DNA of 64,000 bases from Corallococcus sp. AS-1-6 (lineage in GTDB: Bacteria > Myxococcota > Myxococcia > Myxococcales > Myxococcaceae), in the NCBI RefSeq assembly GCF_020037015.1, contig NZ_JAIQDE010000007.1, positions 179,886-243,885 on the forward strand. The letters are read 5' to 3'. Both the position numbers and the translations under genes were made by a program. The notes under the pieces are model-generated. The model was not told the origin of the DNA and made no database searches. It was given only the letters and a program-made list of their open reading frames with translations. Of the stretch, positions 31,302 through 38,903 are shown in pieces. Every line of letters starts with the position of its first letter. Within the stretch, counting starts at the first letter, position 1.

Positions 31302-34300
31302 TCAGTTCCCCCGGGCCGGGTTCTGACGGCGACGCGACGTGCCCCAGGCCGCCAGCGCGGCGAGGAGCGCCAGCGCGGACGAGCCGCCGCCGGTGCTGTC
31401 GCAGCCACCGCCAGCGATCTCCACGACCTGCGCCTGGACCCGGACCTGGAACGTGCACTGCGCGGTGTTGCCCGCCTCATCCGTGGCGGTGACGGTGACC
31501 TGCGTGGCCCCCGGCGCGAACGCGCTGCCTGAGTCGGGCGAGGACGTCACGGTGGGATTCGCCGTCACCGCGTCCGTGGCCGTGGGCGTGAACGTCACCT
31601 GCGTGTCCGGCGCCACCGTGATGTCCGCGGGGCAGGTGACGGTGGGCGCGGTGGTGTCCTGCACCGTCACCGTGAACGTACAGGTGAGGCCGGTGGAGGT
31701 CGCGGTGACCGTCGTGGTGCCAATGGGGAAGAGCGCGCCCGACGGCTGCGAGTAGCTCACCGGGAGGCCCGCCGGCTCCAGCACCGCGGGGTCGTAGGTC
31801 ACGATCGCGCCGTCCGGATCCGTCGCCTCCACGACGAGGTTCGCGGGGCAGGTGAGGGTGGGGGCCACGACGTCCTCCGTCACGTTGAGGGTGACGGTGG
31901 CGACGTTGCTGTCCGTGGCGCAGTCGCGGACGCGGTACGTGAAGCTGTCCGGGCCCACGTAGCCCGCGGCGGGCGTGTACTCGAGGTTCCCCTGCGCGCT
32001 GGTGCCCAGCGTGCCGTGCTGCGGCGGGGTGACGATCGTCCAGGTCAACACCTGTCCGACGTCCGGATCCGTGCCGGCCAGGGCGAGCGCCGTCGGCGTG
32101 TCCTTCTGGATGGTGACCGTCTGGTCCGCCGCCGTCGGGGGCTGGTTGGCGACGACCGTCACCATGCGGCCGCCGGGGATGGCGTTAGCGAAGACGGAGA
32201 GCGCGTAGGTGCCCAGCGGCACGTCGGCGGGCACGGTCACCGTCGCGCGGGTGTCGGAGGTGTTGCTGCTGGGGAGCGTCCAGAGACGCCCGCCCTCCGC
32301 GGCCTGCAGGCGCACCAGCGGGAAGTCGGTGGGCGAGTCCGCGCTGTTGCCGCCGCTTCCGCCGGAGATGCCCCGGAACCGCTGGCCCTCCACGACGGTG
32401 GGGCAGGCGGCGACGAGGGTCGCCGGGTTCGTCACCGTGGGCTTCCAGGCGGTCTGGGCCCGGGTGTCGTCATACACCTGCGCGTTGGTGGCCTCCTGAC
32501 CGCCCGCCAGCAGGACCTCGCCCGAGGACAGGGCGACGCTGAACAGGCCTCCCGCGGCAGTGGGGTCCGCGACGTTGATCCACGCGCGGAGGAGGGGGTC
32601 ATAGACCTCCGCCGTGTTGGCGTAGTCGCCATTCGTGGTGATGCCGCCCGCGGCCAGCACCTTGCCGGAGGCCATCAGCGTGGCGGTGTGCAGCCAGCGC
32701 GGCTGCGAGAGCGCGCCCACGGACGTCCAGGTGTTGGTGCCGGGCGCGTAGAGCTCCGAGGACGTGAGCTCCGTGCCGCCCGAGATGCCGCCCGCCGCGA
32801 GCACCTGGCCCGACGGCAGCAGCGTCAGCGTCAGCTCGTCCCGGGCGCCCGCGAGGCCCGCCGCCGGGGTCCAGGTGTCGTTGGCGGGGTTGTAGATCTC
32901 CGCCGAGGCCAGCGCCGTGCCACCGGCGTTGTGGCCGCCAGCGACGAGCACCCGGCCGTCATGCAGCAGCACGGCGCGGTGTCCGGCGCGCGCCGCGACG
33001 AGCGAGCCCGCCGCGGTCCACGTATTCGTGTCGGGCGCGTAGAGCTCCGCGCTGCCCAGCACCGTGGTGTTCTGCTGACCGCCGACCACGAGCACGCGGC
33101 CATCCGGCAGGAGCGTGGCGGTGTGCAGGTGGCGCGGGCTCAGCATGTTCTCGGTGGCCAGCCACGTGTTGGTGGTGGGGTCGAAGCGCTGCGCGTTGGG
33201 CGTCGAGGTGTTCACGTTGCGGCCACCCGCGACCAGGACCTGTCCCGAGCGCAGGAGGGTGGCGGTGCCCCGCTCGCGCGGCACGTCGAGGTCGGGCAGG
33301 GCGGTCCACGCGTTGCTCGCGCGGTCATACAGCTCCGCCGCGGGTGACGACGTGAAGAGGCCGCGGCCTCCCACGACGAGCACCTGGCCGGAGGGCAGCA
33401 GCGCCGCCGCGGAGTCGGTCCGGGGCGTGCCCATGGTGCCAGCGGGAGACCAGCGGCTCAGGGCGGGGTCGTAGACCTCCGTCTGCGCGAAGAACGTCGT
33501 CCCGGGGGTCGTGGAGAATCCGCCCGCGATGAACACCTTGCCCGAGGGCAGCAGCGTCGCGGTGTGGTTCTCGCGGCCGACGCCCATGGTGCCGCCGGAG
33601 GTCCACGTGCCGGTGGCAGGGTCGTAGATCTCGGCCGAGGTCAGCGCCGGCGACCCGAAGACAGAGCCGCCGGTGACGAGCACCCGGCCGTCAGGCAGCA
33701 GCGTGGCCATGTGGCCGGCGCGCGCGGACGCGAGGCTGCCGGTCGCGGTCCAGGTGTTGGCCGCCGGATCGTAGAGCTCCGACTGGCTCGTGGCGCCGCC
33801 CGCGGCGAAGCCACCCGCGACGAGCACGCGGCCGTCGGGGAGCAGGGTGCTGGTGAAGTAGTGCCGGGCCACCAGCGGGGGCGCCGCGGCGGACCAGGTG
33901 CCGGTGGCCGGATTGTAGAGGTCGGCGCCGGACACCTCTCCGCTGCCGCTGAAGCCGCTCACCACGAGCACGCGCCCATCGCGCAGCCGCGTGGCGCTGT
34001 GCGCGTTCCGGCCCACGGACATGGAGCCCGTGGCGGTGAAGGCGTTGGTCGCGGGGTCGTAGAGCTCCGCGGTCGCGAGCCGGACGCCGCCACCACCGGT
34101 GCCGCCCGCGATCAGGACCTGGCCCGTGGCCAGCAGCGTGGCCGTGGGGAGGCTGCGGGTGGAGGCCATGTTGCCCGTGCCGGACCAGGTGTTGGCCACG
34201 GGATCATAGATGCGTCCCCCCTGCGAGCCGTCGGTCAGCACCAGCACCTTGCCCGAGGGAAGGAGCACGGCCAGGGTGATGTTGCCCGTGAGGCTGGAGG

Positions 34301-34601
34301 TCCCCGCGGAGGCCCAGGTGTTGGTGGCGGGATCGTAGGTGTCCGCCGCGCTCACGAAGCCGGTCGTGTTGACGCCGTTGACGACGAGCAGCTTCCCGTT
34401 GGGTAGCAGGACGGCCGCGTGTTGCCCGCGTGGCGTCCCCATGGGAGCGGTGGCGTACCAGGCCGGCGGCGCCGCGAGACGGGCGTGAGCGGCGCGGATG
34501 CCCTCGGATGCCGCCGGGCGCTCGTTCCCGCCGCAGGACAGAAGGCCCAGGCTCGCGGCGAACAACAGGAGCCTGCTCCAGACAGCGCGTTGTGACCGCA
34601 T
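31302..34601 (-). CDS. Large surface lipoprotein with Kelch-repeat beta-propellers, Ig-like/HYR domains and a C-terminal MYXO-CTERM sorting signal
   Basis: 1099 aa with a lipobox LLSCGG. There are >=12 Kelch-like repeats (TLLPDGRVLVVGG...YDP..NTW). Domains of HYR type follow (APTLTCPANLVV). The tail GGGCDSTGGGSSALALLAALAAWGTSRRRQ is the MYXO-CTERM pattern. Confidence 0.8.
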   Translation of the reverse strand: MRSQRAVWSRLLLFAASLGLLSCGGNERPAASEGIRAAHARLAAPPAWYATAPMGTPRGQHAAVLLPNGKLLVVNGVNTTGFVSAADTYDPATNTWASAGTSSLTGNITLAVLLPSGKVLVLTDGSQGGRIYDPVANTWSGTGNMASTRSLPTATLLATGQVLIAGGTGGGGVRLATAELYDPATNAFTATGSMSVGRNAHSATRLRDGRVLVVSGFSGSGEVSGADLYNPATGTWSAAAPPLVARHYFTSTLLPDGRVLVAGGFAAGGATSQSELYDPAANTWTATGSLASARAGHMATLLPDGRVLVTGGSVFGSPALTSAEIYDPATGTWTSGGTMGVGRENHTATLLPSGKVFIAGGFSTTPGTTFFAQTEVYDPALSRWSPAGTMGTPRTDSAAALLPSGQVLVVGGRGLFTSSPAAELYDRASNAWTALPDLDVPRERGTATLLRSGQVLVAGGRNVNTSTPNAQRFDPTTNTWLATENMLSPRHLHTATLLPDGRVLVVGGQQNTTVLGSAELYAPDTNTWTAAGSLVAARAGHRAVLLHDGRVLVAGGHNAGGTALASAEIYNPANDTWTPAAGLAGARDELTLTLLPSGQVLAAGGISGGTELTSSELYAPGTNTWTSVGALSQPRWLHTATLMASGKVLAAGGITTNGDYANTAEVYDPLLRAWINVADPTAAGGLFSVALSSGEVLLAGGQEATNAQVYDDTRAQTAWKPTVTNPATLVAACPTVVEGQRFRGISGGSGGNSADSPTDFPLVRLQAAEGGRLWTLPSSNTSDTRATVTVPADVPLGTYALSVFANAIPGGRMVTVVANQPPTAADQTVTIQKDTPTALALAGTDPDVGQVLTWTIVTPPQHGTLGTSAQGNLEYTPAAGYVGPDSFTYRVRDCATDSNVATVTLNVTEDVVAPTLTCPANLVVEATDPDGAIVTYDPAVLEPAGLPVSYSQPSGALFPIGTTTVTATSTGLTCTFTVTVQDTTAPTVTCPADITVAPDTQVTFTPTATDAVTANPTVTSSPDSGSAFAPGATQVTVTATDEAGNTAQCTFQVRVQAQVVEIAGGGCDSTGGGSSALALLAALAAWGTSRRRQNPARGN

Positions 34602-34730: not shown

Positions 34731-35786
34731 TTACCCATCACGTGGGTCGTAGACCTTCTCGGGAGGGGCCTCCAGGAAGCGGCGCCACCAGAGACGGGCC
34801 TCGTCCTGGGTGTACCCCTCGAAATTGTTGAAGGGAGTGGAAGGCAGGAGCCACGGTTCCAGGAACCGCGCCAGCTCCCGATAGGCCGGCAGCGTCTCAC
34901 CCCACTTCGTGTTCCCCGCGAGCGGCGCGGGGCCCAGGCCGATCAGGGCACGACCTCCACTGAGTTCCTGGACGGAGGTCTCCGGGTGGCTCAGGTGCGA
35001 GCGGAGCGCATGGGCGCCGCCAATGGTTTCGAGGAGGGGAGGGCCCAGGAAGTTCATCCAGTGGATGCCATCCACTCCTTCTCCCATGCCCCACGTGCTC
35101 TCTCGTGGGACATCCCAGCCGGGATGCTGGACCAGTTGATCCTTCAGGAGGGGAAGGAGCCTCGATCTCCCACGGGTGAACGAAAGCGACAGTCCCGCAT
35201 GGCCCGTGCTGAAGGGAAGGAGCTCCGCCAGCGAAAGCGCCAGCTCACGTGCCTTCACGGGCCCCTGGTCCTCCAGATATCGCATGGGGACCTTCACACT
35301 CAGAACGCTGTACTCAGAAGAAGGTTCTCGCCAGGGAAGACGAGAGCGGAAGCTGAATTCATAGCCACTGGGGTCCGACTCTCCACCGACGAGATGGACC
35401 CACGTGTCAAAGCCCCGCTTGGTCAGCGTGCGGAACCAGATGGAGTCCTGGTCCATGTCATCCAAGGGCTCGAAGCGAGACCTCTCGACATGGCGCCGCA
35501 GCTCCTCCCAGAACTCAGGTGTGAGCGGGAACGCCGCCTCACTGATGTCGGGGTCATAGCCCGTGGTCAATTTTTCAGGCGCATGTCCAATGGCGTTGAG
35601 AAACAGGTCCAGTGACTGTCTCGCATATGGAGCAAGTGAGCCGTGGTCATGCGGCAGATAGAACACGATGCGCAGGACAAGCTGGACCCTGGGAAGTGTC
35701 GTGGCGAAGTGCTCGGAGGGAGTGTAGCTAGTCACGAATGATCCCGAACTGAGGTGTGATGATGGCGGGGTTGCACTGCCCATCAA
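34731..35786 (-). CDS. Hypothetical cytoplasmic protein; candidate immunity protein (start uncertain)
   Basis: 351-aa ORF immediately downstream of, and overlapping, the lipoprotein gene. It has slightly lower GC and no recognised motifs. Confidence 0.4.
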   Translation of the reverse strand: MMGSATPPSSHLSSGSFVTSYTPSEHFATTLPRVQLVLRIVFYLPHDHGSLAPYARQSLDLFLNAIGHAPEKLTTGYDPDISEAAFPLTPEFWEELRRHVERSRFEPLDDMDQDSIWFRTLTKRGFDTWVHLVGGESDPSGYEFSFRSRLPWREPSSEYSVLSVKVPMRYLEDQGPVKARELALSLAELLPFSTGHAGLSLSFTRGRSRLLPLLKDQLVQHPGWDVPRESTWGMGEGVDGIHWMNFLGPPLLETIGGAHALRSHLSHPETSVQELSGGRALIGLGPAPLAGNTKWGETLPAYRELARFLEPWLLPSTPFNNFEGYTQDEARLWWRRFLEAPPEKVYDPRDG

Positions 35787-36453
35787 GGTTTGCGTACCGG
35801 GTCATCTGCGCCTGTGTTTCTGGAACCGAGCGCGGATTGCTCTTTCGTGCCTTGAGGCACGGAAACTTGAAGTCGTAGATGCACTGGGCCTGATCCGGTC
35901 GGCCTGAGGCGTGAAGGACGATGTCAGGCTTCAGGATGTCCTGGTTCCCCGCCTTGCCCGTGCGAATCACATAGCTCGGCTCGATCGAAACGTTGTTGGG
36001 GAAGAGCCGGAGGATTTCGCGCCGCACGCATGCGAAGGCAACGTCATGCTTCATCGTCCCAAGCTCGGCCTGTCGTCGGATGGGATCGCCGTTCTTGTCG
36101 TAACCCACCACACGCATGCACTCCGTGTCATCCGGGGACTTCCCCTCACCGTACTCACGCTCATTGACGAGGTGGTTCGCCTCCTTCGCGCACTCCACCA
36201 GCAGGTGCTCGATGCGGGCCACGTCCGCGGCCTCCAGGAGCTTCATCGTGGCTCCCGCCGAGGCCGCGGCCCTCGCGGCCTTGTCCACCCACGGCAGGAA
36301 CGCCTCGTCCCCCGGCTGCGTGTAGCAGGCGGGATTGCGCAGGCAGCCACTGGTCGCGGAGTCTGTGGACTGCGCGTACTGCCTTGGCCCCGAAGCGCAC
36401 GACAGGCACAGCAGGGCCACCAGCCCACACAGCAGGCGCCCCTCAATCATCAT
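35728..36453 (-). CDS. Lipoprotein with C-terminal PD-(D/E)xK-like nuclease motif (candidate polymorphic toxin, SitA-like)
   Basis: Start MMIEGRLLCGLVALLCLSCASG (lipobox). The C-terminal region KPDIVLH ... IYDFKF forms PD...(D)xK. GC is visibly lower (~58-60%). Confidence 0.5.
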   Translation of the reverse strand: MMIEGRLLCGLVALLCLSCASGPRQYAQSTDSATSGCLRNPACYTQPGDEAFLPWVDKAARAAASAGATMKLLEAADVARIEHLLVECAKEANHLVNEREYGEGKSPDDTECMRVVGYDKNGDPIRRQAELGTMKHDVAFACVRREILRLFPNNVSIEPSYVIRTGKAGNQDILKPDIVLHASGRPDQAQCIYDFKFPCLKARKSNPRSVPETQAQMTRYANLDGQCNPAIITPQFGIIRD

Positions 36454-37426
36454 CTTCACCCGCGTCGTGCGCCGCCGCGTTGAAGAGGCCGAAGCCCCCG
36501 GCCTCCTCGCTGGAGATGTCCGCCCGGCGCAGAGCAGGGGAGTCCCGCGTCTGTCCCACCGCCATCCACCGGGGCGCCGCCAGCAGCACGCCGTCCCTCG
36601 GCAGCTCCGGGAGCAGGTGCTCCAGGTCGCCAAGGATGAACTCCGCGTGCCCCACGCTCTCCGGCTCCGGCAGCCCCACCGGCGGATGCCACGCGCCTCC
36701 GTCCAGGTGCCCGAAGGGGAAGCTCCCCGTGCCGCTCGCCCCTCCGTACCCGCCCTCCAGCAGCCGCCTTGTCCGCTCCACCCCTCCCGTCACCGCCGGC
36801 AGGCACACGCGCGTCAGCCAGTCCCAGGTCGCCGCGCCCTCCTCCACGGGCCAGTCCAGCTCCACCGTGTCGTCCGCCTTCGCCAGCAGCGCGTCGATGT
36901 ACGCACACGCCGCCCGCGGCCCCAGCACGCCGCCCCGGCGCGCCTCCTCCACCGCCGCGGGCCACAGCTCCTCGCGGTAGTAGTGCGCGAAGTAGAAGCC
37001 CGGCTCGTCCCACTCCGGACGCGCGCCCCGCGGCAGCTTCGCCAGCACCAGCCCGCTCGACAGGTACGCGGGCCCCGTGGCCCGGGGATGGAACTGGCTG
37101 AAGGCCAGCCGGAACACCCGCACCGCCAGCCCCGCCTCCTCCGTCGCCTCCAACCCCTCCGGACACCCCGCGCGCAGGTGGAAGTCGTCGAAGCGCAGGA
37201 ACACGTCCACCCCCATGCCCACCGCGCTCCGACACAGCGACTCCAGGCACTCCGCCAGCGGATGCCCCGCATGCACGGGGGCCTCCCACGCCGCCGCCCG
37301 CACCGTGCGCGTCTCTGCCTCCACCCGCAGCGACAGCCGCACCCGGCCGCCCCCGAACGCAGCCTCCCCGTGCCGGACGTCCTCCCCGTGAAGCACGCCC
37401 CGATGTTCCTGCCCTGGAGTCGTCAT
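36443..37426 (-). CDS. Hypothetical protein (327 aa), first gene of the three-gene minus-strand operon
   Basis: It is protein-like, whereas the antisense frame is R/P/H junk. There is no signal peptide. Its stop is 5 nt before the lipoprotein start. It may be DUF2334 deacetylase-like (weak). Confidence 0.45.
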   Translation of the reverse strand: MTTPGQEHRGVLHGEDVRHGEAAFGGGRVRLSLRVEAETRTVRAAAWEAPVHAGHPLAECLESLCRSAVGMGVDVFLRFDDFHLRAGCPEGLEATEEAGLAVRVFRLAFSQFHPRATGPAYLSSGLVLAKLPRGARPEWDEPGFYFAHYYREELWPAAVEEARRGGVLGPRAACAYIDALLAKADDTVELDWPVEEGAATWDWLTRVCLPAVTGGVERTRRLLEGGYGGASGTGSFPFGHLDGGAWHPPVGLPEPESVGHAEFILGDLEHLLPELPRDGVLLAAPRWMAVGQTRDSPALRRADISSEEAGGFGLFNAAAHDAGEDDD

Positions 37427-37474: not shown

Positions 37475-38326
37475 ATGTCCGAGCCCTCCCATCCGCGCGA
37501 CGGCGACTTCGAGCTCGTCACCCTGCGCAACGGCCACCGCGCCGTGCGCCACCTGGGCCATGGCGAGGTCATGCACCCCGCGGTGGGCCCGTGGCAGGAG
37601 GCCCTGCGCCTCTACGTCGACCAGCCCGGCCTCGCGGACCGCCTGCGCCAGCCCGGCCCGCCGCTCGTCATCCACGACGTGGGCCTGGGCGCCGCCACCA
37701 ACGCCGTCGCCGCGCTCACCCGCGCCCGGGAGCTGGGCCCCGAGCGCGCCCGCGACCTGCACATCGTCAGCTTCGAGGTGGACCTGGCCCCCCTGCGGCT
37801 CGCGCTCGCGGACGCGGAGGGCTTCCCCTTCCTCCAGCCGTTCCGCGAGGCCGCCGAGCGCCTCATGAAGCACGGCGCCTGGTCCGAGCCCGGCCTCCAG
37901 TGGACCCTCAAGCTGGGGGACGCCGTGCCCTTCCTGGAGCCGGACGCGCAGCTCCCCCCCGCGGACCTCGTCTTCTTCGACCCGTTCTCACCCGCGTCCA
38001 ACCCGGACATGTGGACCGAGGCCGTGCTCGCCCGGGTGCGCCGGCATTGCCGGGAAGACGGGGAGGGCGCCCTGCTGATGACCTACAGCGCGGCCACGCC
38101 CACCCGCGTCACGCTGCTGCTCGCGGGGTTCTACGTGGGCGCCGGCGCTTCCACCGGCACCAAGGGGGAGACCACCGTGGCCTCGACCCGCTACGAGACA
38201 CTGACCGCCCCGCTGGGGACCCGGTGGCTGGAGCGCTGGGAGCGCTCGTCCTCCCGGGCCCCGCACGGCGGCACCCTCACGCCTGAGGTCGAGCGTCGCC
38301 TCCGGACCCATCCTCAGTGGCGCTGA
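37475..38326 (+). CDS. MnmC N-terminal-domain-like SAM-dependent methyltransferase (DUF752)
   Basis: VIHDVGLGAATN and FFDPFSPASNPDMWTEAVL...LLMTYSAA match the MnmC methyltransferase-domain signature (FLDGFAP..NP.MW). Confidence 0.7.
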   Translation: MSEPSHPRDGDFELVTLRNGHRAVRHLGHGEVMHPAVGPWQEALRLYVDQPGLADRLRQPGPPLVIHDVGLGAATNAVAALTRARELGPERARDLHIVSFEVDLAPLRLALADAEGFPFLQPFREAAERLMKHGAWSEPGLQWTLKLGDAVPFLEPDAQLPPADLVFFDPFSPASNPDMWTEAVLARVRRHCREDGEGALLMTYSAATPTRVTLLLAGFYVGAGASTGTKGETTVASTRYETLTAPLGTRWLERWERSSSRAPHGGTLTPEVERRLRTHPQWR

Positions 38327-38903
38327 GCGCCCCTTCCACGGGGGCCTCGCTCCAGCGCAGGTGGAACGTGGCCGCCGTGCCGTCGAACTCCTCCGGCAGC
38401 GCCACCACCCGCCACCCCCCGCACAGCGCCACCGCGCGCGCCAGCAGGCCCGCCGCGAACGTCGGCTGGTCCGCCAGCACGTCGTTCATCCAGAGCTCCA
38501 GCGACGTCGCGCTGCGCTCCACGATTTTGACTTCACTGAAGTTGTTGCCGGCGCGAAAGCCCAGGTCCGCCCGCAGCAGCATCCTCCGGGGACCGGCCAG
38601 CCGGCCCACGCCCAGCAGCGCGCGGCCAAAGAACGTCCCGAAGTAGGCGTCCATGAAGCGCTCGCCCAGGGAGTAGTACGCGGCCTCCGCCGGCACGCCG
38701 CCGTAGACGTGGCCCGCCGCGATGCGCAGGAACTCCCGCCACTGCTCCAGCGAGTAGGTGCGCTCCAGCTTCTTGTCGAGGTCCAGCCCAGCCCGCTTGA
38801 GGTGCTCTCGGCACGCGGGCGTCAGGCGATTCTCCAACGCGCGGACGAAGAGCGCCTCGACGGTCTGGGCGAAGACAAGCTTCTCAGGATTCATGCGGAG
38901 CAC
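38277..38903 (-). CDS. DUF2378-like hypothetical (Myxococcales paralogous family)
   Basis: 208 aa. It overlaps the 3' end of the convergent MnmC-like gene by 50 nt. Confidence 0.45.
   Translation of the reverse strand: MLRMNPEKLVFAQTVEALFVRALENRLTPACREHLKRAGLDLDKKLERTYSLEQWREFLRIAAGHVYGGVPAEAAYYSLGERFMDAYFGTFFGRALLGVGRLAGPRRMLLRADLGFRAGNNFSEVKIVERSATSLELWMNDVLADQPTFAAGLLARAVALCGGWRVVALPEEFDGTAATFHLRWSEAPVEGALSATEDGSGGDARPQA

Follow-up and report, generated by a model that had tools for sequence, protein, structure and literature searches.

The SitA/SitI systems of Myxococcus (families SitA1/2 to SitA7; PMC5562445, PMC8546572) are toxin-immunity systems delivered by outer-membrane exchange (OME): an outer-membrane-type lipoprotein with a C-terminal nuclease is encoded immediately upstream of an overlapping gene for a cytoplasmic immunity protein, with multiple divergent paralogs per genome. 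SitA orthologs occur only in species that have traAB (eLife 2017, PMC5562445). The TseV/TsiV pairs of Salmonella bongori (TseV1-4) and P. aeruginosa (PA0822/PA0821) belong to type VI secretion systems (T6SS); TsiV proteins neutralise the PD-(D/E)xK nuclease effectors TseV1-4, and in the crystal structure of TseV3:TsiV3, TsiV3 lies over the putative DNA-binding site (eLife 2022, PMC9635880). In the present study, we analyzed a 64,000-nt stretch of Corallococcus sp. AS-1-6 (NZ_JAIQDE010000007.1, positions 179,886-243,885; hereafter the window), which is high-GC myxobacterial DNA (69.6%), and compared a minus-strand locus within it, composed of a 241-aa lipoprotein gene and an overlapping TsiV-family gene, with both systems. 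We propose a reading of the locus as a polymorphic toxin-immunity cassette of two genes, which encode an OME-delivered lipoprotein DNase (referred to below as the toxin) and its TsiV immunity protein, and we put the probability of this reading as a whole at roughly 0.62. The overall arrangement resembles that of SitA/SitI: the toxin is predicted to be an outer-membrane-type lipoprotein with a C-terminal nuclease, the overlapping gene for a predicted cytoplasmic immunity protein lies immediately downstream, multiple divergent paralogs are present per genome, and the family is restricted to OME-capable myxobacteria (traAB presence taken from the literature).

Identification of the TsiV partner and its linkage to the toxin

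Profile searches indicated that the downstream gene is a member of the TsiV/DUF3396 family. Its product matched Pfam PF11876 ('TsiV, type VI immunity for VRR-NUC'; DUF3396) with an E-value of 3.4e-40 and a score of 138.6 bits against a cut-off of 25, and all 31 partner proteins sampled from related loci also matched TsiV (31/31; best E-value, 1.2e-71). The single immunity sequence gave no match when it was searched against solved structures; only the profile of the partner family reached PA0821 (PDB 7DRG), with an E-value of 2.8e-15. The stop codon of the toxin gene overlaps GTG 35735 of the immunity gene by 8 nt (GTGACTAG). An earlier reading of the same DNA (hereafter the original prediction) had placed a candidate immunity gene immediately downstream of the lipoprotein gene, and the TsiV match supports that placement.

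In a scan of one genome per species, 201 relatives were identified and 78 of their loci were retrieved, to which the locus counts given here refer. A TsiV gene adjoined the toxin gene in all of them (78/78), so that the co-conservation of the two genes expected from the original prediction was observed. The TsiV gene was immediately downstream in 76 loci, where it overlapped the toxin gene by 1-37 nt, and immediately upstream in the other two, both from Pyxidicoccus (L009 and L010:4895-6717). At least two pairs were present within 12 kb in ten loci, one of which (L021:4094-7688) contained a tandem toxin-immunity-toxin-immunity array, and several genomes carried 2-4 divergent dispersed pairs. 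The window toxin was 99% identical to a hypothetical protein of Corallococcus coralloides, and the locus of strain KYC2213 (L005) corresponded to the same region; this strain possessed, in addition to the window-type locus, a second locus (L040) with a toxin that was 40% identical.

The pairwise identities of the toxins were correlated with those of their immunity proteins (Mantel r = 0.76; reached in 0 of 2000 permutations), which shows that toxin and immunity protein are inherited as a unit, although this correlation alone is no proof of specificity. We also found that the pair had diverged further than its surroundings, since identity to the window at the syntenic Corallococcus locus was 60-78% for the toxin and 54-76% for the immunity protein, compared with 80-97% for the flanking genes. 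In the syntenic locus of Corallococcus carmarthensis (L046:6001-7361), the toxin was cut to its last ~113 residues within a 128-aa open frame and the TsiV gene was of full length, so that the toxin seems to have decayed and to have left its immunity gene as an orphan.

The base composition of the pair was also distinct. The original prediction had described a three-gene operon that was slightly poorer in GC than its surroundings; the lower GC was real, but the drop was marked rather than slight and was confined to the toxin and immunity genes. In particular, the pair showed a GC content of 58-66% versus 72-76% in the flanks (500-nt windows), with the lowest values at 58-63%, and the GC content at third codon positions (GC3) was 0.81 in the toxin gene and 0.74 in the downstream gene versus 0.90-0.96 in the neighbours, while the upstream gene, which encodes a 327-aa protein, had a host-like GC3 of 0.91. 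The same tendency was present in 77 of the 78 related loci, with means of 64.0% for the pair and 69.8% for the flanks.

Based on the identity of the TsiV partner, the complete linkage, the paralogs and tandem arrays, the fast divergence, the low GC and the reuse of the module by other delivery domains (see below), we are highly confident that the lipoprotein gene and the downstream gene form a toxin-immunity pair.

Fold and active site of the nuclease domain

The structure of the toxin was modelled with AF2 (AlphaFold2) using 39 homologs, which gave a mean predicted local distance difference test score (pLDDT) of 85.1, with most of residues 70-241 above 90. Structural comparison revealed that the nearest fold was that of Cas4 SSO0001 (4ic1; listed figure, 9.0), followed by a second Cas4 (4r5q; 7.1), BpuSI (7.0), the restriction-endonuclease-like 3ijm (6.9), Dna2 and RecE (6.8) and RecB (6.2), with AddA (6.1) and lambda exonuclease (4.9) among the lower matches. 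Foldseek identified the same fold class more weakly. When the toxin profiles were searched against solved structures, nothing meaningful was obtained and TseV3 was not matched.

The C-terminal motif KPD177IVLH…IYD194FK196FPC was the most conserved part of the toxin family. An exhaustive profile search returned 243 cluster representatives, and in the 202 full domains that were analyzed, the putative active site was conserved almost throughout: D177 was present in 202, D or E at position 194 in 201, and K196 in 194. The QxxxY element was similarly retained (Q216 in 193 domains and Y220 in 200), as were H136 (197), H181 (193) and E82 (E or D in 183), and Cys 88, 112, 142 and 199 were all present together in 197 of the domains. 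The C-terminal nuclease motif and the conserved catalytic residues that the original prediction had proposed were thus found, as was the nuclease fold. Together with D…(D/E)xK…QxxxY, the restriction-endonuclease-like fold places the domain among the RecB/Cas4-like PD-(D/E)xK proteins, and the C-terminal ~170 residues are predicted to be a metal-dependent DNase of this type, an activity that we infer from the modelled fold and the motifs.

Lipoprotein signal and N-terminal region

The toxin begins with MMIEGRLLCGLVALLCLSC19-ASG and the lipobox continues as ASGPRQ, where C19 is the predicted lipidated residue. This cysteine was conserved in all 37 of the 37 homologs that had an N-terminus, which confirmed the lipobox of the original prediction (LCLSC-ASG). 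That prediction had also pointed to the absence of Asp at position +2, which is correct but belongs to the sorting rule of E. coli; the myxobacterial rule for outer-membrane sorting is the absence of Lys at +2 and of Ala at +7 (eLife 2017, PMC5562445). The window lipobox satisfies the latter rule as well, because its +2 residue is Ala and its +7 residue is Gln, and the homologs have A, V, S or T at +2 and never Lys. From these features, the toxin is predicted to be sorted to the outer membrane, and we are confident, to a slightly lesser degree than for the pairing itself, that it is an exported lipoprotein.

Between the lipobox and the nuclease domain, residues 20-69 carry YAQSxDSATSGC37LRNPAC43YTQPG, which is conserved in the lipoprotein homologs. 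This motif was missing in the PAAR-like homologs and in the other long forms, which match the profile from approximately position 75-85 onwards. The pLDDT of this segment was low (47-68), and it is a candidate for a tether or a mini 'escort' segment.

All toxin homologs (n = 141) were from Myxococcales, and the family members seen were annotated only as hypothetical protein or lipoprotein. No Pfam or NCBIfam entry matched the toxin at E ≤ 1, and 39 family members had no Pfam match even at E ≤ 10; the type of system is already known and its immunity side is covered, while the toxin family is unnamed in Pfam and NCBIfam. The hosts of the lipoprotein form were Corallococcus, Myxococcus, Pyxidicoccus, Archangium, Cystobacter, Hyalangium, Vitiosangium and metagenome-assembled genomes (MAGs) of Myxococcaceae, so that among the retrieved loci this form occurred only in Myxococcaceae and Archangiaceae, one record apart. 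These lineages presumably have traAB. The exception (L074; BNCN01000019.1, titled Comamonas sp. KCTC 72670) was the only non-myxobacterial record with a lipoprotein toxin and TsiV; it probably reflects mislabelling or contamination and not the genuine presence of the pair in a betaproteobacterium.

Reuse of the nuclease-plus-TsiV module

Most of the 243 representatives were proteins of 250-290 aa that matched over their full length, and a lipobox was located near the N-terminus in 129 of the 202 full domains. A few longer proteins carried the nuclease part only, at their C-terminus. Two of these, P0207 and P0233, possessed an N-terminal Tox-PAAR-like domain (PF13665; E-values of 9e-37 and 1e-19, respectively), and the gene for P0207 (L079) had a DUF2169 gene before it and a TsiV gene after it, which is the TseV-type T6SS layout. 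A third protein, P0190 (L080), matched TIGR02269 ('SitA6 family polymorphic toxin lipoprotein') with 91.6 bits versus a cut-off of 85.75, and its C-terminus was a PD-(D/E)xK nuclease of the window type. The gene after P0190 overlapped it by 4 nt and encoded a TsiV protein (E-value, 1.1e-58), not a double-CXXCG SitI6 immunity protein. Nuclease and TsiV together are thus a portable module that is common to the T6SS PAAR-like, SitA6-family and short-lipoprotein forms. P0190 and its next gene were located at L080:1100-3297 in a soil metagenome; inspection by eye revealed 'RPHVPLF' at the place where the AHH motif is expected, and the SitA6 part of the protein may be a catalytically dead carrier.

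Comparison with SitA/SitI, TseV/TsiV and Cas4-like nucleases

The original prediction had called the locus SitA/SitI-like. The analogy was right with regard to the lipobox, the C-terminal nuclease and the downstream TsiV gene, but the protein could not be placed in SitA6, SitA1/2 or SitA3. The closest layout was found in the small, non-modular SitA6 family (TIGR02269/PF09533, DUF2380), which also includes P0190 as a homolog with the window-type nuclease and TsiV. In contrast, the window protein itself showed no match to TIGR02269 or PF09533 and is not a member of SitA6. The toxin also differed from SitA1/2 and SitA3: only ~50 residues are present between the lipobox and the nuclease, which leaves no room for an escort domain of ~375-400 aa, and no upstream sitB homolog with a signal peptide was present, so that the toxin does not belong to these families either. 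Additionally, the toxin has a PD-(D/E)xK nuclease instead of an AHH, WHH or tRNase domain, and none of the SitI immunity families that could be checked by description is TsiV (SitI1, SUKH; the SitA5 ahh loci, Imm11; SitI6, double-CXXCG).

Since SitA4 and the SitA5 allele that has been tested belong to the AHH nucleases (PMC8546572), these two are unlikely matches. SitA7 is a possible one; it was cloned from M. fulvus and is described as non-modular and as a 'predicted DNase' (PMC8546572). That the window toxin family is SitA7, a comparison made by description alone, is a real possibility, although we place it below even odds. We also consider, more tentatively, that it may represent an undescribed seventh OME-delivered SitA-type family, a 'minimal' SitA in which a Cys-loop segment of ~50 residues replaces the escort domain and in which the module is shared across delivery routes. 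Our literature search found no paper that mentions DUF3396 together with Myxococcus.

Compared with TseV/TsiV, the family of the immunity protein is shared (PF11876), the D…D-x-K arrangement of the toxin resembles that of TseV3 (D230…D245-V-K247), and distant homologs of the toxin have the PAAR-like-plus-nuclease architecture. The toxins themselves differ: the delivery signal of the window toxin is that of a lipoprotein and is not PAAR-like, it contains QxxxY, the folds nearest to it are of the Cas4/RecB-like type and not VRR-Nuc, and it showed no match to VRR-Nuc (PF08774) and no detectable similarity to TseV3, which places it outside TseV and VRR-Nuc. The resemblance to Cas4 SSO0001 (4ic1), RecE, Dna2 and AddA/B was structural, with an identity of only 8-18%. 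The cysteine positions of the toxin differ from the Fe-S ligands of Cas4, and in contrast to the RecB/Cas4-like nucleases, the protein is proposed to serve as an exported toxin and not in DNA repair or CRISPR adaptation.

Proposed delivery and alternative explanations

In the proposed mechanism, the toxin would be made with a Sec-dependent type II signal peptide (Sec/SPII), would acquire its lipid at Cys19 and would become anchored in the outer membrane, while the translationally coupled TsiV-family protein would remain in the cytoplasm, where it may bind the cognate nuclease and block its DNA-binding site, by analogy with TsiV3 and TseV3. TraA/TraB exchange would pass the lipoprotein into the outer membrane of a neighbour with a compatible TraA. 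The toxin would then reach the cytoplasm of the recipient and degrade its DNA unless the matching immunity allele is carried, and the cassette would be one digit in a 'barcode' for kin discrimination. We regard OME as the probable delivery route, because the lipobox fits the myxobacterial rule, the lineages are OME-capable, no T6SS genes are nearby, and one homolog is a SitA6 fusion.

Several points weigh against this interpretation. The connection of the window toxin with TraAB is one that we infer, and a mature N-terminal region of only ~50 residues does not explain how the nuclease passes the inner membrane; the escort domains that define the SitA families are ~375 aa long (PMC8546572), while SitA6 proteins are similarly small (TIGR02269 profile, 209 aa). 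No mobile-element genes were seen near the locus and the chromosomal position of the cassette is conserved across Corallococcus species, which is less typical of sitAI loci. The pairing of the toxin with TsiV comes from the immunity side only, since no sequence similarity of the toxin to TseV3 or VRR-Nuc was detected. Finally, the four invariant cysteines are also kept in the T6SS-type PAAR-like homologs, which have no signal peptide and presumably are cytoplasmic products. The cysteines may therefore form a metal or Fe-S site and not disulfides in the periplasm, and such a site would be hard to load for a Sec-exported protein.

The same lipoprotein nuclease toxin-immunity pair might be delivered by another route, namely outer-membrane vesicles or contact-dependent killing during predation, in which case protection of the producer and its siblings would be the sole task of the cytoplasmic immunity protein. 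The evidence for a toxin-immunity pair and for a lipoprotein applies equally to this explanation, and it would be consistent with the very short N-terminal region, which has no recognisable escort domain; myxobacterial outer-membrane vesicles are known to carry lytic proteins (review PMC10433427). We nevertheless place it second, well behind OME, as only OME-performing myxobacterial lineages possess the lipoprotein form, P0190 joins the nuclease module to a bona fide SitA6-family lipoprotein, and the multi-paralog, fast-diverging, allele-specific pattern is better suited to the discrimination of close relatives than to the killing of unrelated prey.

That the pair is a TseV/TsiV-type T6SS effector-immunity pair was rejected as highly improbable on account of the lipobox and the absence of T6SS neighbours. 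The family of the immunity protein is named for T6SS (PF11876), and the Tox-PAAR-like domains of distant nuclease homologs lie beside DUF2169 and TsiV; the window protein, however, has a conserved Sec/SPII signal and lipobox and lacks PAAR, VgrG, Hcp and adaptor domains, and lipoprotein export conflicts with a T6SS effector because such effectors load from the cytoplasm. In agreement with this, no T6SS, VgrG or PAAR genes were found within ~8 kb of the pair. We give the least credence to a non-toxin function, either as a nuclease with a housekeeping role in the periplasm or outer membrane (such as the scavenging of extracellular DNA) and with an accessory protein, or as a decayed restriction-like remnant. 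The chromosomally stable position among ordinary genes in Corallococcus and the annotation of the family only as hypothetical or lipoprotein would be compatible with such a function, whereas the partner is a recognised immunity family in every locus, delivery domains of the T6SS and SitA6 types also make use of the module, and the rapid divergence, paralogy, tandem arrays and truncated toxin beside an intact immunity gene (L046) are signatures of toxin-immunity pairs.

Organization of the locus and neighbouring genes

The open reading frame (ORF) call revealed three head-to-tail ORFs on the minus strand, which encode proteins of 327 aa and 241 aa and then the immunity protein, whose ORF ends at 34731 (Table 1). 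The three ORFs of the original prediction were therefore present, but the 351-aa form of the last one (34731-35786), which starts at TTG 35786, the farthest of the alternative start codons, is less likely. In orthologs and paralogs, the start of the downstream gene lies at the corresponding place and usually overlaps by 4 nt (ATGA or GTGA); as judged from this sequence comparison, the start is most likely GTG 35735. A scan for promoters and terminators inside the operon gave nothing useful.

Table 1. Positions of the locus features in the window
Feature	Position	Strand	Basis
Toxin gene, 241-aa lipoprotein with predicted PD-(D/E)xK nuclease domain	35728..36453	-	ORF and homologs
Type II signal peptide and lipobox (predicted), M1 to C19	36397..36453	-	Cys column conserved in homologs
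Short mature N-terminal region, residues 20-69	36247..36396	-	Motif conserved in lipoprotein homologs
PD-(D/E)xK nuclease domain (predicted), residues 70-241	35731..36246	-	Motif conservation and AF2 fold
E82	36208-36210	-	Key residue
D177	35923-35925	-	Key residue
D194-F-K196	35866-35874	-	Key residues
Q216xxxY220	35794-35808	-	Key residues
Cys88, Cys112, Cys142, Cys199	within 35857-36192	-	Conserved Cys
Immunity gene, TsiV/DUF3396-family, predicted cytoplasmic, 334 aa from GTG 35735	34731..35735	-	PF11876, 7DRG profile match, start comparison
Low-GC island over the toxin-immunity pair	34731..36250	.	500-nt windows, GC3
327-aa hypothetical gene, upstream neighbour outside the module	36443..37426	-	Genus-restricted, host-like GC3

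Between the stop codon of the 327-aa ORF and the ATG of the toxin gene there is an overlap of 11 nt (ATGATGATTGA). In M. xanthus, the sitB and sitA genes overlap (PMC5562445); SitB carries a signal sequence and is conserved together with sitA. The 327-aa gene was considered as a SitB analogue on the basis of its overlap and was rejected, as its N-terminus was not signal-peptide-like, its GC was host-like and no co-conservation was found outside Corallococcus. The 327-aa protein showed no family match in Pfam or NCBIfam, and its homologs (8 close homolog clusters) were found only in Corallococcus and a related MAG. Its AF2 model was unusable as a whole (pLDDT, 41.5), with residues 15-110 forming a moderately confident beta-beta-beta-alpha arrangement. 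The gene was located upstream of the toxin in the 10 syntenic Corallococcus loci only and not in the other 68, which, together with its host-like GC3, places it outside the toxin-immunity module; it is regarded as a neighbour that probably supplies read-through transcription in Corallococcus.

The neighbouring genes encode OmpA/TSP3, Kelch lipoprotein, MnmC-like methyltransferase, DUF2378, LysR, NmrA and acetyl-CoA-synthetase-like/GNAT proteins. Directly downstream of the immunity gene, a gene at 31302-34601 (minus strand) encodes a 1099-aa protein with many Kelch repeats and Big_9/cadherin-like and HYR domains, whose N-terminus is lipobox-like (LGLLSCGG); this gene is kept at the same place in most syntenic Corallococcus loci. 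The DUF2378 protein at 38277-38903 (minus strand; Pfam E-value, 2.6e-58) is, as we take it, TIGR02265, one of the Myxococcus-specific paralogous families.

Biological implications

The pair most likely lets Corallococcus poison close relatives that do not have the matching antidote. If confirmed, it would add a toxin-immunity family to the myxobacterial repertoire of social compatibility ('self-identity barcodes') and would extend TsiV/DUF3396 immunity from T6SS to lipoprotein-delivered toxins. It would also provide a very small lipoprotein toxin for studies of the way in which a nuclease anchored in the outer membrane enters the cytoplasm when no large escort domain is present. With a family profile, sitAI-like loci would be counted better in the genomes of Corallococcus, Archangium and their relatives. 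If the tentative view of a 'minimal' SitA family with a shared module is true, a single pool of modules would supply myxobacteria with kin-discrimination toxins for two delivery systems.

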